From Nitrospirota bacterium (GTDB lineage Bacteria; Nitrospirota; Nitrospiria; SBBL01; SBBA01), in NCBI GenBank assembly GCA_038067655.1, contig JBBTNS010000018.1, forward strand, positions 1 through 58,346: DNA of 58,346 nt. Reading direction: 5' to 3'. Both the position numbers and the translations under genes were made by a program. This document shows positions 1,935 through 21,035 of the stretch, piece after piece (the stretch's first letter is position 1; every line of letters begins with the position of its first letter). Under the pieces are notes generated by a model. The model made no database searches, was not told the origin of the DNA, and was given only the letters and a program-made list of their open reading frames with translations.

Positions 1935-4900
1935 TTATAATAAATGACTGCCCTCCAAGAGAAAGTCAAAATCAGATCGAGAAATCAACGTGCCTTTGCC
2001 AGCCTGGGCGGGATCCCCCATGACCGCTTCATACAGCGCAAGCTTTTTTTGTTTTAAGACCATCATTTTTTCTTCAATGGTATGACGCATCAGAATTCGA
2101 GTAATAGAGACTTTTTGCGTCTGCCCAATCCGATGTGCGCGATCGGTGGCCTGATTCTCAACGGCGGGATTCCACCACGGGTCAAGATGAAAGACATACG
2201 ACGCGCGCGTTAAATTCAGCCCCTGTCCGCCCGCCTTTAAGCTAAGCAAAAAAACGGTAGGGTGTTCTCCCCCTTGAAAACGCTGAACCAGCTCCTTTCT
2301 TTTTACTGTTGGGGTTTTCCCATCGAGTCTTAAGAAGGGAATCGCCTGTTTTTTTAACCGCTCCTCTACAATATCCAAAAAAGAGGTAAACTGCGAAAAA
2401 ACCAATGCGCTATGGTTTTCCTCCATCAGTTCCTGTAGCTTTTCAAGCAGGAAATCAATCTTCGGCGAATCTTCTTTTTCTTGGTGGGTCAGTAATCGAG
2501 GCGAAATACAAAGCTGTCTTAGTTTTAAAATGGCGGTTAACGCAATAATACGGGCTTGGGACGCGGTTTTCTGCCGATAGGCTTGGTCTATATTGGATTG
2601 AATCTCAGCAACGGTCTTCTGATAAAGCGACTTTTGTCGTTCGGTGAGTGACAAATAAACATCCGTTTCTGTTTTTTCCGGCAGGTCTTTTAAGACCGCT
2701 TCTTTTGTCCGCCTTAAAACAAATGGCCGGGTTCTCCGAATGAGGGTCTCAAGCATTGGCGATGTCTCAAGATTGATCTGCGACTTAAATAGATCGTATT
2801 CCCCGAGCAGCCCTGGGAGACAAAGATCAATCAGCGAGTAATATTCCCCCAGATGATTTTCCAACGGCGTTCCCGTCATGGTGAGTTTGAAAGACCCCCT
2901 TAATTGGCGGGCGGCACATGTTGTATCCGCCATGATATTTTTAATCGCCTGTGCCTCATCGAAAATAATCACATCGAATTGCACAAATTTCAGTTTTTCA
3001 ATATCACGCCGCATCAAACCGTATGTCGTGATCACGACATCACAGTTGTTAAAGGTCGCATTACGTTCCTTTCCAGTATAAAAATAGAGTTTTAGATTTG
3101 GATAAAAACGAGTCAGCTCCGTCTCCCAATTAAATAACAAACTGGGAGGCAGTACAACCAAGTGCGGCAGCCGCCGACGACTGATCGCGATATTGCTGCT
3201 CCCAGTTTGTGCAGCAGAGAGAGAGAGAAGGGATTGGGGGGCAGGGAGGGCGGGTTTTTCAGCCCCAACGGGGCCGACCCCCTCGGTGTGGCCGTTGCCA
3301 CAAATAATCCCTTCATGAATGCCGCCTAAAAAACTAATCGCCTGAATTGTTTTTCCCAGCCCCATGTCGTCTGCGAGACAGGCGCCAAACCGATGCTGAT
3401 AGAGAAACGCAAGCTGGTCGTATCCCTCTTTTTGGTATGGCCGAAGCTGTGCCGCGAGTTGCTTGGGAAGGGCGGTGGGCTCAATTTGAGTAAAGCGGGT
3501 GAGCTTTTTGACTAAGGTCTCATCTTCGTCTGAAAGTATTACCTTCACCCCTTGATTACGAAGCGCAATCCAATCCAAAATCTGAAGTCTCGGAACCTGA
3601 ACAATCTCTTTTTGACCCCCTTTCTTCTTTGGCATCATTTTGTAAAGGGTGGTCAACGATTTTAATATCTGCTGTGTATTAGAATCGAGAATTTGAACCA
3701 GCCCCCCCGATTCGACGACGCCGCCTTGCTCCAAAAGGCTTCTCCACACAGCCTCGTCTAGAGCCTCCCCGTTGCATCGAATTTCCGGAAGAATCTCAAA
3801 CCAATTCGTCTGTGTTTTTTGATCCCGCTTTGCATTGATTGTAACGTCCCACGAAGCCGTCTTCATGGGTTTATCATTATAAAAAAGAGCGATCTCCTGT
3901 TTGGCCAATGTTGAATAGAGCACGTTGAGGTTGGCATGTAACAATTGAGAATCAATTGTCATCTCATAGTGGCGCTGACTGTCATAAAAGATTGGCGCGC
4001 CGAATTGTTGCAGCGGAATTTGATATAAAAGAGCCTCTTTTGTTTTTTGATTGGAAATCAGATGCCATTGACCCTTATAAAATTGAAGACGAAAGTCCGA
4101 CTCCAAATAGGCTGATGAAAAATGCTTTAGCATCCGCTTTGCGTATGCAAACAATTGCTGCGAATCAAACAGAGCCGTCGGGAGTAAATTGTCTATCTTC
4201 TCGTTCATCTCGGTCTTTGTTTTTATATCGGACAACATTGATAAGAAGAGCGTTATTAAAGGGGCCAGTCTTTTTTTTGCGCGCAAAGCGGACGGAACAG
4301 ATCGCGCCTGATGGAGATAGGTGAAAAACTGGAATGTGGGCGCGTGTGTGGGAACAATTGACTCTCCCAAACAACAGGCGGCGGACAGTCGAACCGATTT
4401 TTTTTGCATGATGCCATATTCATCTTTTTTCGGATGAATCATCAGACAATAGCGATGAGATGATATTTGAATCGGCAATGCGCTGCCTGAAACTTTAAGG
4501 ATGAGATCCTTAATCGAATCAAATGAAAGGGTTTGCCCTTCCTTTAAGGATCGAACCGACAACCGATTTTTTGCGACATTCATTTGGAGCGATAAAAAAT
4601 CTTTCAATGAAACCTGAAAAGAGCCATGCTGTGATCGCCGCTCTTGCTGTGCTGAAAGCTCCCACGAGTTAGGCGTTCGATTGCTTAAATATAAGTCAGA
4701 ACCACTGAATTGTTTTGTATGACTCAATAGAAAAAGCCGAAGCAGATCATCATAAAAATGCCAGCCGGACGAATCATTTACGATCCCTAGCGTTTTATGG
4801 ATCGGATCCGCAACAAAATCGCCAATAAAATGAGCGGACTCTTGCACGGCCTGATTCAATAAACAACGGGGCGAGATTGAAACACGCTCCCCCTCTACAT

Positions 4901-5585
4901 TCATCTCAGTTTGAGATTGATAAATGCGCTCCGGGTCCCATGATAAGTCGATCTCCCCCGTTTTTAACAGCAAGGTGATCGGATAGCTATTTCCCGATTG
5001 CGTTAAGTACAAAAAGAACTGCTCGGAAGGAAATCGCATGCTATAGGAATCAAACAAGGGGAAAAGCACGTGGGGAATTTCCCATCTTGCATAGGCCTTT
5101 TTCTTGTTTTTTCTGATCGACAGGGACGGCGTATGCCCCGTCAGATCCAGAGCGATATCGTATCGATCCCGCTCTGCTCTTCTGACTTTTTCATGAGAAG
5201 GCAATTTTTCATTCAGCAGGGCTTCCGAAAGCCTTTCTAGGCGTGCCGGGTCTTGGTTGGGCATCTTAAATAGATTGGGAGAAAGAAGATTCTTCGTCGT
5301 GAGCAGGACGCAAATCAGATGTTTACAATGAGATTCTCGTGTCCATGCTGGGCAATTGCAGGTGAACTTAAGATGAGTGCCTTCGCAAAAAAGAAGAACC
5401 GAATAAATACTGGATCCTCGTACTTGCACTTGAAGATAATCGTCTTTCCATTCGTATGATAAGACTCGTTCGTCTTCGTAATAGTGAAGTCCTCGTATAA
5501 AGTAATCCTTGGGTGCTATAAAGTAGAGTTCGTTGGGCAGTATTGCTTTTAACTGTTGAAGCAGGCGCTGTTCTTGTTTCGGCAT
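1935..5585 (-). CDS. SWIM zinc-finger / SNF2-family (SF2) helicase, 1216 aa
   Basis: SWIM motif CNCPAWTRESHCKHLICVL near the N-terminus. SNF2 motifs present: LADDMGLGKT, IIFDEAQAIKN, TGTPLENHL, and LSLKAGGQGLNLT...HLDPWWNP...QATDRAHRIGQ. Confidence 0.85.
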   Translation of the reverse strand: MPKQEQRLLQQLKAILPNELYFIAPKDYFIRGLHYYEDERVLSYEWKDDYLQVQVRGSSIYSVLLFCEGTHLKFTCNCPAWTRESHCKHLICVLLTTKNLLSPNLFKMPNQDPARLERLSEALLNEKLPSHEKVRRAERDRYDIALDLTGHTPSLSIRKNKKKAYARWEIPHVLFPLFDSYSMRFPSEQFFLYLTQSGNSYPITLLLKTGEIDLSWDPERIYQSQTEMNVEGERVSISPRCLLNQAVQESAHFIGDFVADPIHKTLGIVNDSSGWHFYDDLLRLFLLSHTKQFSGSDLYLSNRTPNSWELSAQQERRSQHGSFQVSLKDFLSLQMNVAKNRLSVRSLKEGQTLSFDSIKDLILKVSGSALPIQISSHRYCLMIHPKKDEYGIMQKKSVRLSAACCLGESIVPTHAPTFQFFTYLHQARSVPSALRAKKRLAPLITLFLSMLSDIKTKTEMNEKIDNLLPTALFDSQQLFAYAKRMLKHFSSAYLESDFRLQFYKGQWHLISNQKTKEALLYQIPLQQFGAPIFYDSQRHYEMTIDSQLLHANLNVLYSTLAKQEIALFYNDKPMKTASWDVTINAKRDQKTQTNWFEILPEIRCNGEALDEAVWRSLLEQGGVVESGGLVQILDSNTQQILKSLTTLYKMMPKKKGGQKEIVQVPRLQILDWIALRNQGVKVILSDEDETLVKKLTRFTQIEPTALPKQLAAQLRPYQKEGYDQLAFLYQHRFGACLADDMGLGKTIQAISFLGGIHEGIICGNGHTEGVGPVGAEKPALPAPQSLLSLSAAQTGSSNIAISRRRLPHLVVLPPSLLFNWETELTRFYPNLKLYFYTGKERNATFNNCDVVITTYGLMRRDIEKLKFVQFDVIIFDEAQAIKNIMADTTCAARQLRGSFKLTMTGTPLENHLGEYYSLIDLCLPGLLGEYDLFKSQINLETSPMLETLIRRTRPFVLRRTKEAVLKDLPEKTETDVYLSLTERQKSLYQKTVAEIQSNIDQAYRQKTASQARIIALTAILKLRQLCISPRLLTHQEKEDSPKIDFLLEKLQELMEENHSALVFSQFTSFLDIVEERLKKQAIPFLRLDGKTPTVKRKELVQRFQGGEHPTVFLLSLKAGGQGLNLTRASYVFHLDPWWNPAVENQATDRAHRIGQTQKVSITRILMRHTIEEKMMVLKQKKLALYEAVMGDPAQAGKGTLISRSDFDFLLEGSHLL

Positions 5586-5724
5586 AAGAGACTATTCCAT
5601 ACGCAAAGACGTATTATTAAAGGGTGAATCGACAAGTGTAATCCAGATAAAACGACCTGTCAACAATAATGACCGAATGCTTTTTCTGATGTTTTGACCT
5701 TCATCCCCAAACCTTGTATTATTA

Positions 5725-5883
5725 GGGCATGGAGACAAATAACCTATCCAGTCGAGCTGCCAATTCATCCCTGTTTACTGTGTTGCTCGTCGCTTACATA
5801 CCAAAGGGTATGCTCACTCCTCGCGCCTTGCAAACAGGGCGACTCGTTTGCTCTTTGTGTATCGGTTATTTGTTTCCATGCCC
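5725..5883. repeat. 159-bp element with 20-bp terminal inverted repeats (MITE-like or structured RNA)
   Basis: GGGCATGGAGACAAATAACC (5725-5744) pairs with GGTTATTTGTTTCCATGCCC (5864-5883) at 19/20 positions. Internal hairpin CATACC-AAAG-GGTATG. TTA is present on both flanks. Confidence 0.5.
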
Positions 5884-5893
5884 TTAGCCCAAA

Positions 5894-6916
5894 ATGTTAC
5901 GCCTGCTTGATCGCTATATCTTCAAAGAGATTCTTGCTCCCTTTCTGATCGGGATTCTGATCCTCACATTCTTAATCCTGCTCCAACAACTGCTCACACT
6001 GACAGAGTGGGTGGTGGACAAAGGGGTCAGCCTTCTGACCGTCGCTGACATTTTTATAAAGCTGCTCCCCTCTTTCTTCCTTTTAACCACTCCCATGGCG
6101 GCGGCCTTTGCGGCGATCCTCGCGTTTCATCGGCTGTCCTCCGATCGCGAACTCATTGCCCTAAACGCCGCCGGGATCGGTTTTTCCAGAATGCTGATGC
6201 CCGTGATCTGTTTTGCGACTTTTGCAGCCTTGTTGACATTCCTGATGGGAACACTTTCCTCCACATGGGGAACCACCTCACTAAAATCGGCTGGAAAGAA
6301 AATGCTAAAAGAGCGAGTGGGTGTCGGATTAGATGCCGGACGATTTACCGAAATCTTTCCGGGACTGATGATCTACGCCGAGTCCATGCCGGAACCTTCG
6401 AAAATAGAGCAGGTTTTTATTTACGATGGAAGATCGGCCGAACATCCACAAATTATCGCGGCTAAAACTGGCCAATTGATTAATGAGAAAGAGGCGATTG
6501 GTCTGGCACTTCAAAACGGAGCGATTCACCTGCATAAACCCTTGGTGGATCAAACGCTTTCTTTTGATTCATACGTTATAAAAATGCGTGTCCCAGTTCC
6601 TTCTTCTTCTGTCCCGTCTGAAAATAAAGCGCGTCAACAAATGGCACTGCATAAGCAATATGCGTTCGCCGTTGCCGCATTTCTTCTTTGTTTGATGGGC
6701 GCGGCATTGGGCGGCATGGCCGGAAACGGCGGACGGTTCGGCCCGATTGTTGCCGGCATTGGGTTGATCTTGCTTTATTATTCTCTGCAAAATGTCGGAA
6801 CCTATTTCTTCCCTGCAGGCAGTCAGTTTCCAGGAATGGCGGCTTGGATTCCCAACCTGGTTTTAACACCGATTACATTTTTTTTATTATTTCATAGAAA
6901 CGGGAAACGCGTTTAA
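5894..6916 (+). CDS. lptF: LPS export ABC permease LptF (YjgP/YjgQ family)
   Basis: N-terminus MLRLLDRYIFKEILAPF, a multi-pass membrane protein, followed 1 nt later by its paralogue lptG. Confidence 0.8.
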   Translation: MLRLLDRYIFKEILAPFLIGILILTFLILLQQLLTLTEWVVDKGVSLLTVADIFIKLLPSFFLLTTPMAAAFAAILAFHRLSSDRELIALNAAGIGFSRMLMPVICFATFAALLTFLMGTLSSTWGTTSLKSAGKKMLKERVGVGLDAGRFTEIFPGLMIYAESMPEPSKIEQVFIYDGRSAEHPQIIAAKTGQLINEKEAIGLALQNGAIHLHKPLVDQTLSFDSYVIKMRVPVPSSSVPSENKARQQMALHKQYAFAVAAFLLCLMGAALGGMAGNGGRFGPIVAGIGLILLYYSLQNVGTYFFPAGSQFPGMAAWIPNLVLTPITFFLLFHRNGKRV

Positions 6917-6917
6917 G

Positions 6918-8021
6918 ATGGCCTTATTATCCCGATATCTCTTGTCTGAATATTTAAAATGGCTGGCGATCCTTCTGACGACGCTGGTTATGGTCTTTCT
7001 TACGATTGACTCCTTGGACAAGGTGCGTTGGTATATCAAATACAATCCGACTTTCTTATCCGTTCTGGAATATTTTATTTTGAAAGTGCCGAAAATTGTT
7101 TCAGACCTCATGCCCATTGCCCTTTTCTTGGCTTCTTTAGTCACGCTTTTGCTCCTTGCAAAGAATAATGAGATCGTTTCGATGATGAGCGCGGGAATCA
7201 GTATGGTTCGGATCACGATGCCGATTCTAATTGTAGGGGGGGTGGTCAGTGCGATTTTTTTCTTTCTAAATGGGGCATTTATTCCTGCAACTTACAAGCA
7301 AGCGAGGATTGTCCAGCTGGAGAAAATTGAAAATGGGGGGTCGGTGGGAGCAAGAGGGACTTTCGTACAAAATAAAATCTGGCTTCGTGTGAGCCGTCAA
7401 ACCTTGCTTTATGCACAATTGGTAGACACGAAAAAGAACGCGATGTTTGGCGTACATCTTTATTATTTGGGAAATCTCATCCCCATGGAGGCGGAGATTG
7501 AAGCAGCGTCACTTTCTCATGAGATCGGCGGGTGGATTTTGTCTAATGGCGTTCATATCCAATATCAACAGGACGGAACGGTTTCTAAAACGCCATTTGT
7601 GAGAAAAACGGTTCAAATTGAGAAAACACTCCTTGAGATTCAACGGCTGGAGATCAAGCCGGACGAGATGACATACGAGCAATTACGGTTGTACATTGAT
7701 CAACTGAAAAAGGACGGGCTGAATGCCAATCGGTATGAAGTCGGTCTGAATCGAAAATATGCGTTCCCATTTTCAAATTTTGTTTTGGCCATTTTGGGCA
7801 TTCCGATCGCTTTTAAATATATGAACCTGAAACAAGGGGGAATGGCGCGGCCGGTTCTCTTGGGTCTTGGCGTGGTCTTGCTTTACTGGCTTTCTTTCTC
7901 AATTACCTATTCGATGGGAAGACTGGAAACACTTTCTCCCTGGGTCGCGGGATTTGGGCCACACATTGTGTTTTTGGCTTTGGGAATCGTGTTGCTCATC
8001 AACCTGCACCACCACATTTAG
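6918..8021 (+). CDS. lptG: LPS export ABC permease LptG (YjgP/YjgQ family)
   Basis: N-terminus LLSRYLLSEYLKWL, paralogous to the upstream gene, with the typical periplasmic insert between TM3 and TM4. Confidence 0.8.
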   Translation: MALLSRYLLSEYLKWLAILLTTLVMVFLTIDSLDKVRWYIKYNPTFLSVLEYFILKVPKIVSDLMPIALFLASLVTLLLLAKNNEIVSMMSAGISMVRITMPILIVGGVVSAIFFFLNGAFIPATYKQARIVQLEKIENGGSVGARGTFVQNKIWLRVSRQTLLYAQLVDTKKNAMFGVHLYYLGNLIPMEAEIEAASLSHEIGGWILSNGVHIQYQQDGTVSKTPFVRKTVQIEKTLLEIQRLEIKPDEMTYEQLRLYIDQLKKDGLNANRYEVGLNRKYAFPFSNFVLAILGIPIAFKYMNLKQGGMARPVLLGLGVVLLYWLSFSITYSMGRLETLSPWVAGFGPHIVFLALGIVLLINLHHHI

Positions 8022-12970: not shown

Positions 12971-13230
12971 TGTCAGTGACAAATAGAGATGGAAGGTTTT
13001 GAGGTACCCTTTTTGAGAAAGGAGGGAAAGTCGGGCGGGACAATTGTGTTCATTTTGAGGGGCGTGTTTTACTGATTCCGAGTCATCCGTATCGTTGTCA
13101 TGACGTGAAAGCGACGGTTCGTGTGTCGCTTTATGGGGATGGGCGAGTGGCTCTTTTTCATGGGCCTCGGAAATGGGTGGAATATGATGAGAAAGGAGGG
13201 GCTGTTTTACAGTGGGAAAAGGCTGCGTAA
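12971..13230 (+). mobile_element. Internally deleted ISNCY-like IS remnant (5' end joined directly to the last 67 transposase codons)
   Basis: 12971-13026 repeats the 5' end seen at 20626-20705. 13027-13230 translates to ...GRDNCVHFEGRVLLIPSHPYRCHDVKATVRVSLYGDGRVALFHGPRKWVEYDEKG..., which resembles ISNCY-family transposase C-termini as I recall them. Confidence 0.6.
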
Positions 13231-13280
13231 ATCCGCTTCGCAGATGAAGTAAATCATATTGGGGATGCCTAACCAGTTAT

Positions 13281-15801
13281 TCACTCCCTCGCCACCACCG
13301 TGTCGTACAACCCGTAATGGGTCAGACCCGGATGGCTATCTATGCCGGCGTAACGGAGCGACGCGTCTTCGTACCGCCGGAACGCGAACACGGCCTGATT
13401 CATCTGCTCGGTGTTGAACACCTTCAGCCGCACAAGCAGGTGGAAGTCCTTCACCGTCAGGCCTGTGACAACGAGGAACAGCTCCGGTTCGAGTTTGGTG
13501 ATGACATCCTGCAACGTGTTTTCGCGGAAGTCGGTCAGGTACATGAACGCGGGAATCCGCGTCGCAAACTTGATCAGCTTCTCTTGAACAAGCTTGCGCT
13601 TTGACTTGTACTCCTTCTCCTCGTCGGTGAGCTGTTTCTTCTGCTTCTCCGTCAGCTCTTTGTCTTTGGCCTTGTTCTTGAGTTCCCTGACCTTCTCGCT
13701 CTTGTTGATGATGGTCTCGATGATGTGGTCGCCCAGCGAGCGCCAGCCCTCGATGCGCTCAACGGCGGCCATCGCTTCGGGGTTGTCGAGGATGCGCCGG
13801 AGCGTGTCGTTGTCCACGTTCACGAGCAGCGCGCTCTCCCACTTGCGAGCCAGCAGCGTGGCCGAGGTGCCCGCCATCGCGATGTCGAGAATGCCGCCTG
13901 CATCAATCTGCGTCATGTTGGCACCGTCGAAGGCCAGCACGGGCAGGAACGACACGAGGTCCTTGACGGCGTTCTCCGGGTTCGGCTCGTTAGGCGACAG
14001 GCCGATTGCGTACTCGGAGAGCTGCCGCAGCGCGCGCGTGGGCGCGAAGTCGAACACGAAGCAGACGGGCTTGAATATCTCCTCTTCGTTCGGGTTGTCA
14101 CCGTTTGGGTTCTTGATGGACCAGGGTGACTGCACGCGGAACGCGGCCTGAAAGTAGGTCTCCGGCGACTTGAGATTGCGCAGCATCAGGATGGATGACC
14201 ACTGCGGCACCGTGACGCCGGTGGTGAGCTTGCCGCAGGAGAGCGTGATGGTCTTGGTCGTAAACCCGCTGCCGATGGCCGTGCGCACGGGTGGCAACGC
14301 ATCCAGTCCGATGCCCGCAGATGCGCCAGCAGCGACGACCACCTCATAGTCGCGCCAGAAGGTGTTGTGCTTCTCGGCCAACAGGTTCGCCATCGCGTGG
14401 CAGGCCGCGACGTTGGGCAGAAACCAGAACGAGTGCTGCAAGTAGGGCAGCAGGCGAACGTCCGAGTGGCCGGGTGCCAGTCTTGAGATACTCCACCGCC
14501 TTGGGCGCATACCCGCCGCGGATGATGTCCAGCCACTTCTGCACATCGCTCTTGTGCTTGAACTGCGCCTTGAGGCCCGTGCCCGATGCCTCGAAAAACG
14601 CGTTGAGATCGAACTCGTCGAACTCCCCCGCGCTCGCTATGGCAACCAGTTCGTCCGGCATCTGGTAGGTCAGCAGGCGCATCTGCGGCAGCGCGCCGTA
14701 GGGGTTCCACTGGCCAAGGTTCTGGGCGGCGAACGCTTCCTTGGCGCGCTGTTCGTCCGTGTACGTCCAGTTGAATATCTGCTCCTCGATGAACTCGCCC
14801 GTGGCCAGAGCCTTGAACGGGGTGCCCGAGAGGTAGAGATACGCCTTGGTCGTGATCGGTAGGAACTGATCCGAGAGCTCCTTCAGGTCTTCATTTACTC
14901 TCTCCAGATTCTTGGCGTATTCGATCTTTACCGCCTCTTCCGCGACTGCATCTTCCTCACCTTCGAACAATTCCTTGGCGGTCTCCCGCCACGCGCCGAA
15001 ATGGTATTCGTCGAACACCACGAGGTCCCACTTCACTTTGTGCAGCCATTCGTTCTTGGGCTTGATGTTCCCCGCCGCATCGCGGCCGAGCAGGTCTTGG
15101 AAGGAGCCGAAATAGACGACCGGCTTCTTGCTGTTGATCTTCGTCGGGTCTCCGTCGGAGTGGCGCGACAGGTACTGCCAGCCGTCGAAGTCCACATGAC
15201 TTTCAATATCCGTCTGCCACGCGTCCTCCACGGCGGGCTTGAAGGTCACCACGAGCACGCGTTTGGCGCCGAGCTTCCGGGCCAACTGATACGCGGTGAA
15301 GGTCTTTCCGAAGCGCATTTTCGCATTCCAGAGAAAGCGCGGGACCGCGTGCATGTCTTCCTTCCAGATGGAGTGGAAGTAGGCGTGGGTCTTGTTCACG
15401 GCGTCGGCTTGCTCGCGGCGCATCACGAACGTCTCGTGATGGGTGCCGGTGAATCGCTGGCCGGTGCGGAGTTCAGTGAGCACGGTTTGCACGTCCGTGA
15501 CCGAGCAGCGCATCCATTCCAGTTCGACGTTCTCGATCCCTTTCCTGACAAGTGCAGCGCGTACGTCGTGGTCACTGAAAATGCTGCCGTTGTCGCGCTC
15601 GGCGGATGCGTCGAGTTCAATGCGAAAGCTCTTGATCGCGGCGGTCTTGAGCTGCTCGGCGACACGCTGCTTCACGTCGCGTGTGGTCTGGCCCACCTTG
15701 AGGAGGCCCGCGTGCGCTTCGTCGGAAATGGAGTAGGCATAAATGCGCGGCCGGGCTTCCGGCTTGGGCGCAAGGATTTCTTCGATGGTGGGCTTGCTCA
15801 T
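13281..15801 (-). pseudogene. T5orf172/GIY-YIG-like nuclease domain fused to a DExH SF2 helicase (about 840 aa), broken by one frameshift near 14475-14485
   Basis: N-terminus IYAYSI...GLLKVGQT; helicase motifs AKMRFGKT, VVFDEYH, LSGTP, GKLTTGVTVPQW, QAAFRVQS. ORFs 14344..15801 and 13281..14546 are consecutive parts in different frames (…AVEYLK / PGHSDVRLLPYLQHSFWF…). Confidence 0.75.
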
Positions 15802-16805
15802 GACGACCTCTCGATGACTTCCCAGTGGCCGGCCTTGTCGGAGCCGATCCGTTTGAGATGGCCCTGTTCACGTAGTGTTTTGAGATGGCGTTCCACGGTT
15901 CGAGTGGTCTTGTTCAGCAGGGTTGCCAACTCCTTGGCTGACAAATGCGGCTGCTGCGCCAGGAATCCCAGAATTTGGCCACTTACACCGACATTTACAC
16001 CGACATCTTCAGGGGTGGTTTCCACGCTCTCCGTCGCCACATCAATGTACTTGTACAGCGAATTGGCTATGGCATCGAGCATAAAACCGATGAACGGACG
16101 GCAATCCAGCGCGCCGGTATGCGAATCCTGCAACGCCTTGTAGTACAGCGCCTGATTGTGGTGAACCAGGGTTTCAACCGGCATCCAGGCAAACAGCGGG
16201 TTCCATCGGGAAAGAATCAGCGTCTGCCACAGCCGCCCGATTCGGCCATTGCCGTCGCGGAAAGGATGGATGTATTCCAGCATGTAGTGGACGGCGGAAC
16301 TCTTGATGAGCGGGTGCGCTTCGGCGGTCTTTCCCCAATCCAGAAGCTGCTCGACCAGGGCGGGGACATCTCCCGCCGGAGAGCCACGGTGCATCACCGT
16401 ACCATCGCCGCTCACGACGGCCACACCGACTGTGCGGAACCGGCCCGACTCTCCGATGAGTGCGTCGGTCAGATGCGCGTGGGCTTTCAGAAGGTCGCTC
16501 ACCGACCAGGGCTCATAGCGGGTCATTTCGTTGTAGGCATGCCACGCGTTCTGCACCTCTTTGATGTCCTTGGGCGGCCCCCAAACCGGTTTGCCGTTGA
16601 TGACATCGGTGACTTGACCCAAAGTGAGCCGGTTTCCTTCAATGGCCGTGGAGGCGTGAATCGAGAGAATGCGGTTGAGTTTGCGCAGATGCAACAGATC
16701 GCCCGACTGCTCCTCGCTGATCTTGACGCGTTCCAGCAGGGTGTGAATGGCGCCGATCTTTTCGTGCCACAGGGGGTCGTCCGTATAAAACTTCTCAAGC
16801 GGCAT
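15798..16805 (-). CDS. Fic/DOC-family protein (class II, with N-terminal inhibitory helix) and C-terminal winged-HTH
   Basis: Catalytic motif HPFRDGNGRIGR; inhibitory motif STAIEGN ((S/T)xxxE(G/N)); C-terminal HTH (SAKELATLLNKTTRTVERHLKTL). Its stop overlaps the helicase ATG (ATGA). Confidence 0.85.
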   Translation of the reverse strand: MPLEKFYTDDPLWHEKIGAIHTLLERVKISEEQSGDLLHLRKLNRILSIHASTAIEGNRLTLGQVTDVINGKPVWGPPKDIKEVQNAWHAYNEMTRYEPWSVSDLLKAHAHLTDALIGESGRFRTVGVAVVSGDGTVMHRGSPAGDVPALVEQLLDWGKTAEAHPLIKSSAVHYMLEYIHPFRDGNGRIGRLWQTLILSRWNPLFAWMPVETLVHHNQALYYKALQDSHTGALDCRPFIGFMLDAIANSLYKYIDVATESVETTPEDVGVNVGVSGQILGFLAQQPHLSAKELATLLNKTTRTVERHLKTLREQGHLKRIGSDKAGHWEVIERSS

Positions 16806-16858
16806 CACGTGCGGACCTCCGGCTTGGGCGCAAGGATTTCTTCGATGGTCTTACTCAT
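16805..16858 (-). other. 17-codon ORF (MSKTIEEILAPKPEVRT) duplicating the N-terminus of the helicase gene
   Basis: 32-bp identity between 16818-16849 and 15758-15789. Has its own ATG and a GAAGGA Shine-Dalgarno-like sequence. Its stop overlaps the Fic ATG (TGATG). Confidence 0.6.
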
Positions 16859-16955
16859 TGCGCTATCCTTCGAGTTCAGTGTGATAAATCTATTACTCAT
16901 TGAGGCTCTTGAAAAGTCGTCGAAACTGGCTCCCCCGCCCCCTAACCCCCCGCCT

Positions 16956-18137
16956 TTAGCGGAACGCCGCTTTTGACGCGTCCGCTGGAAGGCATTGTTG
17001 GGCATCTTTTAGTTTTGTTGCTAACTCGCGGCCTATTTTTTCTGCAAGCAACACAGGAACTGCATTCCCGATTTGGCGCATAGCTTCACTCCATGCACCT
17101 TTAATAACAAAATCATCGGGAAATGTTTGTATCCGTTTGGCCTCAAATGTAGTGAGATATCGAACACTCCCATCGTTGAAGCGGATCATGTTTTCCCCGC
17201 CAGGCACGCCATGCCCACCGGCTTTAATTGTTTTTGACGGCCAATCAAAATCACTGCCTGTATGCCCAGGATATGTGCGTGCACCCTCTCGAAATATGTG
17301 GTCGATTATTTTGTGATCAGACTCCGGGTTGGGTGTATCGGATAAAGCATCCCGTACTGTTTTCCACGGCAGTAACTCGGGTTCAAACATCCCATACTTA
17401 TCTTTAAGCCGAGATATCTTTTCTTTCAGGATCACATCTAAAACAGGCCGTGCTGACTTAGCCACTTTGTGGCGGTCCCAGTATTCGCCCGTTACGTACA
17501 TATCCCAAAGAAGCCTGTCTTCCGAGTGTGTTTCTACGGGAAATGACCAAGACATTTTGAGGTCGGATCGTGCGCCCACGATGACAACCCTCTCCCGGGT
17601 TTGAGGCACCCCAAAATCTGCGGCATTTAATAGCTTGTACTGAACGTTATATTTTTTTCCAATGTAGGAAGATTTTTCAATAGTACGAAGCTTGTCAAGA
17701 TAACTTCCCCAATCTGCATTTTTACCTGGCGCAAAATCCGGATAACTTAGCCTAAGAATGATGTATTCAAAATAGTCAGAAAAAGTCTCACGCAATAGGC
17801 CTTTTACATTTTCAAAAACAAATGCTTTAGGTGTAAGCCGTTCAATTGCGCGTATAGCGTAGGGGAACATGTCTCGGCTATCTTGATGCGCCCTATGCTT
17901 GCCGCCCAATGAAAATGGCTGGCATGGCGGGCCACCCGCAACGATGTCAACTTGCCCAAGGGTGTCTAAATCGAAGTCTTTTATGTCGCCAAAGAAAATT
18001 GGCACCGAGTCAAAATTTTCAGAGAGTGAGGCACAAGCATGCCGATTAAACTCAACGAAGGCTGCATGCTCAAAACCCGCTAACTCCAGGCCTTTAGCCA
18101 ACCCGCCAGCACCTGAAAATATTTCAAGGGTTTTCAT
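16956..18137 (-). CDS. DNA (cytosine-5)-methyltransferase
   Basis: Motifs I FSGAGG, IV GGPPCQPFS, VI ENVKGL, VIII QTRERVVIVG and X GNAVPV. Starts 3 nt after the upstream Eco29kI-family endonuclease gene ends. Confidence 0.9.
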   Translation of the reverse strand: MKTLEIFSGAGGLAKGLELAGFEHAAFVEFNRHACASLSENFDSVPIFFGDIKDFDLDTLGQVDIVAGGPPCQPFSLGGKHRAHQDSRDMFPYAIRAIERLTPKAFVFENVKGLLRETFSDYFEYIILRLSYPDFAPGKNADWGSYLDKLRTIEKSSYIGKKYNVQYKLLNAADFGVPQTRERVVIVGARSDLKMSWSFPVETHSEDRLLWDMYVTGEYWDRHKVAKSARPVLDVILKEKISRLKDKYGMFEPELLPWKTVRDALSDTPNPESDHKIIDHIFREGARTYPGHTGSDFDWPSKTIKAGGHGVPGGENMIRFNDGSVRYLTTFEAKRIQTFPDDFVIKGAWSEAMRQIGNAVPVLLAEKIGRELATKLKDAQQCLPADASKAAFR

Positions 18138-18139
18138 CG

Positions 18140-18781
18140 CTACGACCCCAAGCGCTTTAGATGAAGCCGTATTTTAGAAACGATGGTGCTTTTTTCTGCA
18201 TGCGCTCCATTGCACTTATTCGCCCAAGCTCGGCCTTCGTGGATAACGTCCCAATCTGACTTGGCTTGCTCGTATCGACCGCTCCCGGGGTCGTGATTGC
18301 CAAAGCCATCAACGGCAGTATTCCAAAGCGGTATATTCATCTTAATGAGAGCCGCCTCGATTGTGCTAATCATGTCCGAGCCTACGTCTTCGAAAATGAC
18401 GAAGCGGCACATGAAATCTTCGAGCAGCAGGCCAGCGCCAAGCGTAATGCCCCTGCTGTGCTCTCGAAGGCGGCCAATCAGTTCGCGAGATTGATTTAGT
18501 GCGTTGTCCGACGAGCGAGCTTGACGCCATCCTTTTGGAACAGCCTTGCCCACATAGATGGGGTAACCGTAGGAAAGGCGGTTTAGCTCCGCATATCGTT
18601 TATATAGTGGGTTGCGTCCCGTGTAGTACAGAGCGTACACCCCTGTTCCAAAGAATGATTCCGGCGGTGGAAGTGTGTGAACGGGGGTGCCGTTAAAGAA
18701 TCTGACTGCATCTTTGACCAATTCGTCAAAGGCATCGTTTTTATACACATGCTTACTTCGGTCAAACGCTTGCGGCTTCAT
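18140..18781 (-). CDS. Eco29kI-family (GIY-YIG type) type II restriction endonuclease
   Basis: 213 aa with GVYALYY...YPIYVGKAVPKGWR, matching my recollection of Eco29kI. Paired with a C5 methyltransferase. Specificity (CCGCGG for Eco29kI) is not verifiable here. Confidence 0.7.
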   Translation of the reverse strand: MKPQAFDRSKHVYKNDAFDELVKDAVRFFNGTPVHTLPPPESFFGTGVYALYYTGRNPLYKRYAELNRLSYGYPIYVGKAVPKGWRQARSSDNALNQSRELIGRLREHSRGITLGAGLLLEDFMCRFVIFEDVGSDMISTIEAALIKMNIPLWNTAVDGFGNHDPGSGRYEQAKSDWDVIHEGRAWANKCNGAHAEKSTIVSKIRLHLKRLGS

Positions 18782-18835
18782 ACGGCAGTATTTCCTATCT
18801 CAAATTGGCAGGTATATTTTCTCATAATCTGGCAG

Positions 18836-18961
18836 TCACGTCAAAGTAGACGCCCAACGCGACGTTGGCGCCAGCCAATCCCAGAAGGCCGGGTAGAAGT
18901 CCAGACCGTAGTGCAGGTTCTTCGCGGACATGAACACATTGGTGTCCAGCAGATAGCTCAT
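18836..18961 (-). pseudogene. DUF4411 (PIN-like) protein, truncated after about 30 genuine residues
   Basis: MSYLLDTNVFMSAKNLHYGLDFYPAFWDWL is followed by unrelated residues and a stop. Its ATG overlaps the ImmA stop (ATGA). Full-length family members are about 160 aa. Confidence 0.6.
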
Positions 18962-19853
18962 ACCGTCACCCCCAGCTCGCGGGCCGCTTCGTAGAAGGTG
19001 GCCGTCTTGCGCATGCCCAACATGCGAAAGGCATCCGGGAACGAGGTCAAGCCCTCCAGCGTGCTGACCTTGAACTCGCGCGCCAGCCGCTGTATTTCGT
19101 CCGGAATTGGCGCGTTGCGCTGGTGCGCTGCTCGCAGATCCTCCATGGGCATCAGCAGTTCCGCTGCCACCTGGTTGCACCAGCGTTCTGTTTGCTGCTC
19201 GGGCAGCTCGCCCGCCTGCGTATCCGACACGCCCGTTGCAGCCACAAATGGGCGAGTTCATGCGCCAGCGTGAACATCTGGGCAGCCTTGCTGTCGGCAC
19301 CGTTCAAGAATACCAGCGGCGCAAGGCCGTCCGCCAGTGCGAAGCCGCGAAATTCGTCCACGTCCAGCTTGCGGTGGCTGTTGCTGCCCACCACGGAGCT
19401 GACCATTACCATCACCTCGGCGTCTTCGGCCTTGGCGATTAACTGGCGCAACGCGTCCGTCCATGTGGGCAACTGGCGACGCGCTTCGGTGGACAGGGCT
19501 AGCGTCTCGCGCAGGCTGGCACTGCCGACGAACGCCAAGGCAGGTAAGCCGTGCATGCGGGCATGGTCGCGGTACCAGTCCTGTCGCTGCTGGGTTCAGC
19601 GAGGGCCTCGTCGCGCAGGGTACGGAAGTCTGGCACCGGCAACGCCAGCTCTGGCGGTTGGGGCAGGAAGAAGTAGCCGAAGGCCGTGCGCGTGAGGCGC
19701 GCGAAACATTCCAGTTGCTTGAGCGTGGGCTGGGCCTCTCCGCTGAGCCACAAAGGCCACTTGGCGAAGCGAGCCGCTAGGTCGCCGTCGTTCAAGTGTG
19801 CGCGTTGCGCTGCCCAGCGAAGCACGGGGATGGAAGCTGCTACGGTTGTTCAT
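18958..19853 (-). pseudogene. HTH + ImmA/IrrE (DUF955) zinc metallopeptidase, with at least two internal frameshifts
   Basis: Three consecutive frame segments: LRWAAQRAHLNDGDL...PVPDFRTLRDEAL; QRQDWYRDHARMHGLPALAFVG...FTLAHELAHLWL (HExxH); and AATGVSDTQAGELPEQQTERWCNQVAAELLMP. Frame switches lie near 19600 and 19243. The SD-preceded ATG at 19853 is in yet another frame. Confidence 0.7.
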
Positions 19854-19916
19854 ACCACCCCCTTGGGCAATGTTGCCAGCGCCGTTTGCATCATCCCTGC
19901 GGCCAGCTCGCCCACC

Positions 19917-20528
19917 TACCGGTGGGTAGGCCCTCCTCGGCGTAAAGATATCGTGCTTCGCAAGGTGGGCGAAGAGCGAGCCCTTCGCGCTGAAGGCCGA
20001 TGACTGGGTGAGGGTATCGTAAAGGAAATCACGCCGCTGAAACCGGCCCTTGCCCAGATAGCCCCACTCGGCAAAGGTGATCGGCTGGCCGTCGTGGGTG
20101 CGCATCGTCAGCGCGTTGCCGTGCACGAGGTTCTGCGATAGGACCAAGGATGCCGCGCGATAGAGTTCGGCCGACTCATCCACGATTAGGTATTCCGCAA
20201 AAATCTCCAGCATCTTCGCGCGGCACTCGGCGATGTTGTCCTCCAAGAGCTCAATCCCGTAGGTGCACATTAGAGCGAGAAGGGCGTAGTGTCGCCTTTC
20301 AAAGTCGGACTTCCCGAACTTGAGTTCAACGGCCGCGAGCTTCCGTTGCAGGATGCGAACGAGGAAGTTCCCGCTCCCGCACGCCGGCTCCAGGAAGCGA
20401 GAGTCAATGCGTTCGGTCTCGTCTTTCACAAGATCGAGCATCGCTTCAACCATCCACGCCGGGGTGAAGACCTCCCCGTGGTCGGCGACGCGCTGTTTAG
20501 ACTTGACGTAGTTCATAGGCCGATGCAT
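19917..20528 (-). CDS. N6-adenine DNA methyltransferase-like protein (SAM-binding motif I only); 3' end aberrant
   Basis: HGEVFTPAWMVEAMLDL and FLEPACGSGNFLV resemble Eco57I/N6-MTase N-terminal regions. I see no NPPY-type motif. The ORF has no in-frame stop until 19596, well inside the ImmA pseudogene, and the tail is an Arg/Gly/Ala-rich out-of-frame read. Confidence 0.45.
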
Positions 20529-20625: not shown

Positions 20626-21035
20626 TGTCAGTGACAAATAGAGATGTCCGGTTTCAGAACACATAATCTGGAAGGTTTTGAGGCACCCTTTTTGAGAAAG
20701 GAGGGTGCTGATGAGACCAACAGAACCAAGACAGGAGATTCGGAAGATGAGATTTGAAGAAGCATATGAAGATTGGAAACAAAATCGTTTAACCCAAGAG
20801 GAAGCCGGAAGGATTCTTAGGGTCAGTGATCGGACATTTCGACGTTATTTGATTGGGTATGAAGCCGAGGGATTGGATGGCCTGTTGGATAAGCGTTTAT
20901 CCATAGGATTCGCCCCGGCGTGCGCCGGTCGATGAAGTGATCGCGCTAACGACAATGTATCGGTCGCATCATTTGGGCTGGAACGTAAAACATTTCTATG
21001 GTTTTTACAAGAGAACAGACTTTTGGAAAGTACCT
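20626..21035 (+). mobile_element. ISNCY-like IS remnant: 5' end plus the first ~100 transposase codons (frameshifted, 3'-truncated)
   Basis: The RBS AAGGAGG and ATG at 20711 give MRPTEPRQEIRKMRFEEAYEDWKQNRLTQEEAGRILRVSDRTFRRYLIGYEAEGLDGLLDKRLS. After a frameshift near 20915 it reads RAPVDEVIALTTMYRSHHLGWNVKHFYGFYKR. Homology is lost where gtrA ends (21039). Confidence 0.6.

Follow-up and report, generated by a model that had tools for sequence, protein, structure and literature searches.

Background

Why should a gene of the Fic family stand between two copies of the start of another gene, and be joined to both by overlapping codons? The question is raised by contig JBBTNS010000018.1 of a Nitrospirota metagenome-assembled genome (MAG; GCA_038067655.1), the whole of which, 58,346 nucleotides (nt), was analysed here and is called the window. 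On its minus strand a very short open reading frame (ORF), copied from the start of a helicase gene, is followed by the Fic gene, and this in turn by the helicase gene itself, which we will call R. The answer that we consider probable is that Fic is a promoter-less cassette lodged in the first ~50 nt of R, and that the duplicate of the R start has been co-opted as a leader for translational coupling. The same layout is met in many bacteria, and represents a conserved design rather than a local accident.

The duplicated gene start and the junctions of Fic

Repeat finding in the window gives a direct repeat of 38 nt (95% identity), with the upstream copy at 16812..16849 and the downstream copy, within the true R start, at 15752..15789. 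An earlier note on this DNA had reported a 32-bp core (15758-15789 and 16818-16849), and this exact core indeed lies within the 38-nt repeat. The alignment of the two copies that the note recommended has been run: if an insertion or deletion (indel) of 3 nt is allowed, their similarity starts at the ATG and extends over ~54 nt. A pattern of 26 nt from the core has two exact matches in the window, against none in 100 shuffled sequences.

The upstream copy of the R 5' end, hereafter r, forms a stand-alone ORF of 17 codons plus TGA (16805..16858, minus strand), just as the earlier note had seen. Read directly on the minus strand, it begins with the ATG at 16858-16856, encodes the peptide MSKTIEEILAPKPEVRT and stops with the TGA at 16807-16805. 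It contains a TAA at its nucleotides 6-8, the place of the upstream gene's stop codon in the canonical loci described below (at this site r reads ATGAGTAAG and R reads ATGAGCAAG), and a GGAGG that lies 7 nt ahead of the GTG of Fic.

The Fic gene fills the space between the copies (15798..16808, minus strand; 336 amino acids from the GTG at 16808, or 335 from the ATG at 16805, as in NCBI entry MEK7747724.1). Both overlaps announced in the earlier note, TGATG before Fic and ATGA after it, are present. To this we can add that the stop of the short ORF overlaps the GTG at 16808 as well as the ATG at 16805 (GTGATG, to be read as GTGA or as TGATG), and that it is the GTG position that corresponds to the conserved Fic start in homologues. 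At the other end, the Fic stop TGA (15800-15798) overlaps the ATG of R (15801-15799). The overlap of stop and start codons by which translational coupling is recognised is thus found at both Fic junctions. Over the leader and the Fic start there was no Rfam match at E<=0.1, and the predicted folding was no more stable than that of shuffled sequences (z +0.56).

The interrupted gene belongs to a three-gene operon

The earlier note spoke of a nuclease-helicase defence gene. This gene does not stand alone; it encodes the R (restriction) subunit of a unit of three genes, M1-M2-R, and the duplicate includes the stop codon of the gene that precedes R in this unit. According to Pfam, R combines an N-terminal T5orf172 (GIY-YIG-like) nuclease domain with a ResIII/superfamily 2 (SF2) helicase, in ~845 amino acids in homologues. 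Its relatives are numerous (at least 8000 scored proteins), and the best 120, which were inspected, are 83-88% identical across at least six phyla, with hosts among Gemmatimonadota, Chloroflexota, Planctomycetota, Spirochaetota, Methylomirabilis and Proteobacteria. Such conservation and spread are unusually high for a defence gene. There is no NCBIfam model for the R family, which is apparently uncharacterised.

In the genomes of homologues, R is the third and last gene of a contiguous unit. M1 (218 amino acids) resembles the N-terminal piece of a methyltransferase, and M2 (~530 amino acids) is an Eco57I-type N6-adenine methyltransferase with a GNPPYQ motif. M2 and R overlap by 8 nt, the stop TAA of M2 lying within codons 2-3 of R (ATGAGTAAG); the M2-R junction of canonical loci carries ATGAGTAA, and the ribosome-binding site of R sits inside M2. 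In PADLOC, R and the C-terminus of M2 match the two halves of one fused model, REase_MTase_IIG. M1-M2-R is, by its predicted domains, a very widespread operon of restriction-modification (R-M) type, of putative restriction function.

Starting from R, we sampled metagenome contigs (the best 80 of >565 matches), among which 67 loci had enough upstream sequence. M2 directly abuts R in 61 of the 67, and an insert is present at the M2-R junction in the other 6, proportions that are rough given such a sample. Helicase homologues with and without the insert, which the earlier note proposed to look for, therefore both exist, and the same repeat is found at the junctions.

Fic at the same junction in other genomes

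Homologues of Fic with 65-89% identity were taken from 80 species-level genomes, and 85 Fic loci were considered in all (loci are numbered with an L). The earlier note asked whether Fic recurs beside this helicase family: M1/M2 and/or R do surround Fic in 33 of the 85 loci, and the position between M2 and R is occupied by Fic, accompanied by the same repeat, in L003, L006, L007, L024, L026, L033, L034, L044, L045, L049, L062 and others. The cassette-like capture envisaged in that note is therefore correct insofar as there is an insert in the 5' end of R, but the capture did not happen in this genome, Fic being an old cassette found across phyla that has diverged together with R. Pairwise identities of Fic are correlated with those of R (rho 0.59) and less with those of M2 (0.24), which means that the cassette is old and has mostly been inherited in linkage with R while M2, the specificity gene, was shuffled. 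Moreover, 47-124 nt of the R start are often retained after the Fic stop in loci that contain only Fic (L011, L023, L040, L073, L085), and these remnants indicate that orphan Fic genes descend from a state in which Fic was embedded in the operon.

Searched with a profile made from the first 240 nt of R, the loci show partial copies (r) upstream of Fic that measure 42-157 nt and always begin with the R ATG, and a separate test by local alignment places r directly beside Fic in 23 distinct loci. In 19 of these 23, the leader ORF that starts at the r ATG stops on a TGA by which it overlaps with the start of Fic. This is so in spite of differences in the 3' parts and in spacing: the leader ATG and the conserved third codon of Fic (Pro) are 56, 59, 62, 128, 131, 149 or 179 nt apart, always in one and the same frame, and even the shortest leaders, shortened by internal deletions to 8 codons in L013 (MSKPESRS) and to 5 codons in L019 (MNKKP), keep both overlaps. 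In L046 and L011, the R start is joined in frame to Fic.

The leader thus shows signs of selection, and these are also visible in single positions. Of the r copies, 22/24 have the stop at nt 6-8 of the repeat, and so have 16/16 canonical R starts; it is found in no more than 5/16 of the R starts that follow Fic, in which AGT has typically changed to AGC. The alignment also shows a Glu codon situated ~10 nt upstream of Fic; it reads GAG, and so creates GAGG or GGAGG, in 9/11 short leaders versus 6/32 R starts. The peptide itself is under relaxed constraint: in a core of 11 codons, the ratio of synonymous to nonsynonymous changes is 48:47 in r versus 67:22 in canonical R.

Finally, ORFs of foreign origin also end on the Fic start. 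It is the M1 5' end that does so in L014, and the DUF1016 ORF itself in L023; the leader of L036 joins codons 1-5 of a host membrane-protein gene to the rest of r, and that of L018 and L028 contains the first 13 codons of a host TAT-signal gene. Taking all homologous Fic starts together, NTGA is found in 53/73 loci and an ATG-initiated ORF ends there in 41/73.

Two loci harbour Fic genes with large internal in-frame deletions, of which 58 and 155 amino acids are left (L126, 9054-9230, and L145, 8537-9004). In both, the overlap with the leader and the ATGA shared with R persist, as if the relay could outlive the protein.

We propose that the upstream copy of the R start preserves what the M2 side needs, namely the M2 stop within R codons 2-3, and that it was recruited as a short leader ORF with a GGAGG inside it and a UGA that overlaps the Fic start ([A/G]UGA). 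Ribosomes would be passed from M2 to the leader, from the leader to Fic and from Fic to R by termination-reinitiation; Fic would then be made only from the operon message, and R would still be coupled to translation upstream. The chain of leader, Fic and helicase suggested by the earlier note remains in our opinion the best reading, in view of the frame and stop kept in 19 of 23 loci and of the Shine-Dalgarno (SD) sequence within the leader. What cannot be retained is the idea that the chain is driven here by the original start signals of the helicase, since there is no methyltransferase gene of the operon ahead of it any more (M2 is absent) and R is frameshifted.

Other cassettes and arrays

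Fic is not the only gene found at the M2-R junction, and each of the others also stands behind an r copy. A YhcG/DUF1016 nuclease is present in L019, L023, L062, L142 and L143, usually fused in frame to the first ~16 codons of R, and in L044 it follows Fic, behind an r of 114 nt. RhuM cassettes occur in L007 and L138, a Bro-N protein in L049, and a DUF559 cassette in L006. Two kinds of gene pair recall toxin-antitoxin systems, a Gp49/HigB-like gene with HTH_37 (HigBA-like; L015, L052, L053) and an AF2212-like gene with PIN (VapBC-like; L106). An IS200-like gene occurs twice, in L049.

The last locus is the most elaborate, with five R-start copies and four units (L049, 3139-7268). Between the copies lie Fic, a partially duplicated Bro-N gene, and two IS200-like units that are nearly identical. 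Each of these two units has the final ~17 nt of Fic at its end, which means that they derive from Fic cassettes, and the array must have grown by recombination between the repeats.

Duplication of a gene start is not general at the other junction of the operon, from M1 to M2: many loci carry inserts there, and a duplicated M2 start was found in L156 only. In this locus (3316-7654), 255 nt of the 5' end of M2 are duplicated ahead of the genes for a 934-amino-acid PHP/SMC-like AAA protein and a Schlafen/AlbA_2-HATPase protein, after which comes an intact M2. Inserts of 0.5-1.7 kb between M1 and M2 are otherwise common (e.g. L016, L019, L024, L044, L062, L093, L120), without duplication of the M2 start.

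How the cassettes may have been inserted

Furuta, Abe and Kobayashi (2010, PMC2853133), who also cite earlier work on H. pylori, described an "insertion with long target duplication" for all types of R-M systems. The inserts are flanked by direct repeats of >30 bp and variable length that are single-copy at the empty site, they lack mobility genes, gene fusions are sometimes created at the junction, and the mechanism is unexplained. The repeat around Fic is of this kind, with 38 nt (~54 with the indel) and a single copy in the 61 of 67 loci where M2 abuts R, and the insert consists of Fic alone, without any mobility gene (the IS200-like genes of L049 being the exception among the cassettes). 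The Fic insert does not contain homologues of R and M, as the inserts of that class do; the whole 7.65-kb island of the window, described below, may fit better on this point.

Direct repeats of host DNA also flank Fic where it is solitary or accompanied by a decayed operon (184 nt in L056, ~160 nt in L021, 119 nt in L018, 102 nt in L036, 54 nt in L039 and 44 nt in L010; L021 still has a 5' fragment of M1 and 53 nt of R), and repeats of 53-78 nt flank three intact operons (L003, L019, L046). In L036 (5857-7195) and L018 (5849-7178), an orphan Fic sits in the 5' end of a host gene. The duplications there, of 102 and 119 nt respectively, comprise the promoter and first codons of the host gene, and the leaders are composed of host codons and the tail of the old leader, still ending on the GTGA of Fic. 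The R remnant of L036 is split, with nt 1-11 of R after Fic and the rest of r before it, an arrangement that resembles a circular permutation, such as the opening of a circle at that point would give.

In one of the two simplest scenarios, a circle carrying Fic and a 5' segment of R integrated by a single crossover, which would produce both the duplication and the variable length of the repeats. Alternatively, Fic might have entered at a widely staggered break, with the same duplication and variable length as a result. The r copies are slightly closer to their own R than to the R of other loci (0.835 versus 0.808, permutation p 0.007), which lends weak support to ongoing exchange between the copies.

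One may go a step further and suppose that the first ~50-150 nt of R are the docking site of an integrase-free cassette system, in which circles bearing one R-start copy enter by single crossover, build arrays and bring with them a portable translational adapter. Such circles would be able to enter any member of the operon family, and occasionally the 5' ends of unrelated host genes, and their cargo would be promoter-less Fic, YhcG/DUF1016, RhuM, Bro-N and toxin-antitoxin pairs. We present this scenario tentatively and consider it rather doubtful, but if true, it would provide a concrete mechanism for "insertion with long target duplication".

Alternative explanations

Several observations weigh against the interpretation of r as a coupling leader behind which a cassette was inserted. 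The leader arrangement is frequent and not universal, as the counts of 53/73 and 41/73 given above make clear. The leader of L003 is 1 nt out of frame and stops 9 nt later, and there are deviations in L024 and L015 too. Since many of the 19 loci with the overlap are related by descent, this count exceeds that of independent events; clear independence can be claimed for the seven length classes and for leaders of foreign origin only. In the window, a search of 15700-17200 gave no sigma-70-like promoter, the contig comes from a MAG and has a mosaic guanine-plus-cytosine (GC) content, and the chain cannot work here as in intact operons, M2 being absent and R a pseudogene. As for the insertion, 46/50 intact operons have no flanking direct repeat, and the right copy of the repeat that brackets the island of the window abuts an ORF resembling that of an insertion sequence (IS), and may thus be an IS end. 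Lastly, the coupling is deduced from sequence, and the mechanism of insertion is conjectural.

Could the duplicated R start simply be a neutral scar of the insertion, without any role, Fic using start signals of its own? The relaxed constraint on the leader peptide (48 synonymous to 47 nonsynonymous changes), the ~40% of Fic loci in which no ATG-initiated ORF ends on the Fic start, the frameshift of L003, and an SD-like motif before Fic in 47/73 loci, which could allow independent initiation, are all what one would expect in that case. A scar, however, should not keep its frame and stop over seven leader lengths and through deletions down to 5-8 codons, nor should leaders rebuilt from the starts of M1 or of host genes end on the same TGA. 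The stop at nt 6-8 is kept only where the upstream gene needs it, and GAG is enriched precisely at the SD position of short leaders. We therefore regard a neutral scar as unlikely.

It may also be argued that the repeats are above all a recombination device, by which cassettes excise and reinsert as circles, and that they persist mainly for this and not for expression. The arrays with up to five copies and the duplicated IS200-like unit with its Fic tail (L049), the occurrence of Fic remnants and of canonical junctions free of cassettes, the apparent circular permutation of L036 and the slight proximity of leaders to their own R (p 0.007) all point in this direction. Against it, the repeats have a length of only 38-157 nt and have diverged in many cases, circular junctions were not observed, the co-divergence of Fic with R (rho 0.59) argues for mostly linked descent, and the conserved frame and stop position are left unexplained. 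As a full explanation this seems to us improbable, though recombination between repeats is compatible with the use of r as a leader and does not exclude it.

That the short ORF encodes a functional peptide, for instance an antitoxin or regulator of Fic, deserves mention by analogy with AS1, the 47-amino-acid ORF downstream of the E. coli SoFic gene that neutralises the toxicity of SoFic (PMC12249575), and one could add that an ILAPKP core is often retained in the leaders. AS1, however, lies downstream of its Fic and is not known to be related. The leaders have unrelated origins (R, M1, host genes, the C-terminus of DUF1016), vary from 5 to 61 codons, are sometimes fused in frame to Fic (L011, L046) and show relaxed constraint on their amino acids. 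We have rejected a peptide function on grounds of these varied origins and lengths and of the relaxed constraint, and believe it to be very improbable.

That the duplication is a local accident, be it a mis-assembly (listed by the earlier note as a possible refutation) or the recombination between two paralogous helicase loci that was its second explanation, is hardly credible in spite of the MAG origin and mosaic GC content of the contig and of the rearrangement of its operon, since the repeat-Fic-R structure is found in dozens of independent assemblies from different phyla, which contradicts an assembly artefact, the window contains a single R locus with two repeat copies, and the repeat is far too short for a bubble in reads or k-mer graphs that would make a 1-kb insert.

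The Fic protein

The features ascribed to the Fic protein in the earlier note are borne out by the translation and by Pfam: a Fic domain (7.7e-19) with the catalytic motif HPFRDGNGRIGR, an inhibitory STAIEGN of class II and a C-terminal winged helix-turn-helix (wHTH) domain. The catalytic motif agrees with the consensus HxFx(D/E)GNGRxxR, and the inhibitory one, ~140 residues N-terminal to it in the same chain, with (S/T)xxxE(G/N); each is kept in 70/70 full-length homologues. By these motifs, the protein is a predicted autoinhibited AMP-transferase of class II. The closest solved structure is 4rgl_A (3e-59); SoFic entries score ~3e-10. The PADLOC SoFic model matches the window Fic at 3.4e-44, which is family-level similarity only. 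Orthology with SoFic was considered and rejected, the score against the NCBIfam equivalog NF046030 being 51.4 bits for a cut-off of 550.

The linker between the Fic core and the wHTH domain (~15960-16010 in the window) is made of tetrapeptide repeats of the type VNVG/VNVP, the number of which differs between homologues (VGVNVGVS in the window, PVNVPVNVPVN elsewhere), suggesting that the DNA encoding them is prone to slippage.

As to function, an additional, protein-targeting layer of defence has been proposed for Fic/Doc and RhuM proteins encoded within R-M operons, by analogy with PrrC (Anantharaman et al. 2013, PMC3710099). By the same analogy with other toxins embedded in R-M operons, Fic is here most likely a back-up effector of toxin type. 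The leader and Fic outlast the decay of the operon in this genome and in many others, which suggests that this unit also has a value of its own; it could be, as we infer from this persistence, an element of toxin-type defence or addiction.

The state of the operon in this contig

The helicase gene of the earlier note is in fact broken. The R sequence (13281..15801, minus strand) is 88-95% identical to homologues of 845 amino acids, and a deletion of 11 nt at 14467/14468 splits it into two overlapping ORFs, 14344-15801 and 13281-14546. The deletion was judged against L001, L003 and L006; L026, from an unrelated MAG, has an insertion of 1 nt at the same spot (CCC versus CC), probably a homopolymer error. 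Nothing resembling M2 was found in the window, and there is no intact methyltransferase with an NPPY motif beside R, nor an intact nuclease-helicase gene. With M2 missing and R frameshifted, the R-M-like operon is defunct in this genome; of its parts, only the leader and Fic survive intact in the window.

The place where M2 would be expected is occupied by two genes of another, foreign R-M system of type II, identified by Pfam and transcribed from the minus strand (16956..18781): an Eco29kI-type restriction endonuclease (18140-18781) and a C5 cytosine methyltransferase, Dcm (16956-18137). A spacer of 98 nt (16859..16955, minus strand) leads from the Dcm stop to the leader ATG and replaces the canonical 3' end of M2. 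Within it are a tract rich in G, a stretch rich in A and T, and an AAGGA placed 8 nt ahead of the leader ATG; compared with the 3' end of the DUF1016 cassette or with L006, the spacer shows a weak resemblance in MAFFT and no blastn-short match. Read-through from the Eco29kI and Dcm genes is a possible source of transcription for the leader and Fic. The Eco29kI/Dcm pair has a GC content of 44-52%, versus ~60% in Fic/R and M1 on its two sides. We also considered whether this pair is a recurrent cassette of the operon, and rejected the idea: one more case only was found (L025), in another position and order, and we treat this as a coincidence.

Further upstream, still on the minus strand, come decayed genes (18836..19900), with a frameshifted Peptidase_M78 region of IrrE/ImmA type, whose HEXXH motif survives as LAHELAHLW, and the truncated start (first ~30 codons) of a DUF4411 gene. 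They are the remains of defence-island cargo between M1 and the Eco29kI gene. A search for the recurrence of IrrE/DUF4411 as a cassette between M1 and M2 was uninformative, the queries derived from L001 belonging to a different family. Of M1 there remain residues 1-199 of 218, 79-80% identical to L003 (19920..20516, minus strand, inside the ORF 19596-20528); its 3' end is also lost.

From the M1 remnant to the R pseudogene, the island forms a block of 7.65 kb bracketed by direct repeats. The left repeat is found at 12971..13026 and the right one at 20626..20705, in two parts, 12990-13026/20669-20705 (37 nt, 97%) and 12971-12999/20626-20654 (29 nt, 90%), which an indel separates in the right copy. 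An IS481-like helix-turn-helix (HTH) ORF remnant (20705-20935, plus strand) follows directly after this right copy, so the repeat could be the end of an IS as well as a long target duplication. It coincides with the GC-content boundaries of the island: GC is ~60% at 13000-16900 (Fic/R) and 19000-20500, 44-52% at 17000-19000, and ~45-50% in the flanking housekeeping genes. A fragment of 41 amino acids after R has as its only match a hypothetical protein on a Methylosinus plasmid.

Significance and comparison with known systems

The presence of Fic in R-M operons, coupling by overlapping codons and long target duplications are all already known in general. In the literature, we found no description of this operon family as a hot spot for cassettes, of a repeated duplication of the R start that gives rise to arrays, or of a duplicate co-opted as a translational leader with signs of selection. 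If our interpretation is correct, these loci illustrate a rule of design by which a gene can be slipped into an overlapped, coupled operon without breaking it, the junction being duplicated and the spare copy relaying the ribosomes. With dozens of natural variants, they also offer material for working out how such insertions originate. The M1-M2-R family is itself worth attention, being extremely widespread, unusually conserved, apparently unstudied and a hot spot for defence cargo. A practical lesson for annotation is that short ORFs duplicating a gene start, and orphan Fic genes preceded by a leader, are footprints of decayed operons of this kind.

The architecture nearest to M1-M2-R that we found described is the DnmA-YeeB-YeeC cluster (PMC9973331), likened here by its set of domains. 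Like the fused type IIG/ISP-like enzymes, it unites an MmeI/Eco57I-like N6-adenine methyltransferase, an SF2 helicase and a T5orf172/GIY-YIG-like nuclease; in our operons, by contrast, nuclease and helicase are fused in 845 amino acids and two M genes lie upstream. SoFic (PMC12249575) is an anti-phage Fic AMP-transferase encoded by a single gene, with the small antitoxic AS1. It shares with our protein the Fic fold, the catalytic and inhibitory motifs and a C-terminal wHTH-like domain, whereas the Fic studied here is embedded in an operon behind a leader, does not stand alone and is not its orthologue.

Integrons come to mind in view of the promoter-less single-gene cassettes, arranged head to tail at one site, presumably expressed from upstream and bounded by repeats, which we see in L049, L007, L062 and L044. 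The repeats are here 5' coding fragments of the downstream gene and not attC sites, and arrays of at most four cassettes were seen; no integrase family is listed among the annotated neighbours of the loci, and the attC structure itself was not searched for.

Toxins within R-M operons are the closest parallel for the cargo. The earlier note knew of no case of Fic co-translated with a GIY-YIG-helicase, but in general terms Fic/Doc in R-M operons has been described (PMC3710099): as with PrrC in EcoprrI, Fic/Doc and RhuM are found between the genes of R-M subunits, and the cassettes reported here (Fic, RhuM, toxin-antitoxin pairs, nucleases) are cargo of the same kind. The host operon is different, an uncharacterised M1-M2-(T5orf172-helicase) unit instead of a type I system, and neither the repeats nor the leader are described there.

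For the mode of insertion, the best comparison is with insertion with long target duplication (PMC2853133), which these loci resemble in the lack of a mobility gene, in the long direct repeats of variable length (42-157 nt around Fic, 44-184 nt in host DNA and ~56 nt around the island) and in the fusions at junctions. The insert is here an accessory Fic, or another toxin or nuclease gene, instead of an R-M pair; it has entered the 5' end of R, inside the operon; the site is reused, giving arrays; and the duplicate shows signs of selection as a translational leader. We found none of these differences in that paper. The loci described here join two things that had been described separately, toxins in R-M operons and long target duplication.

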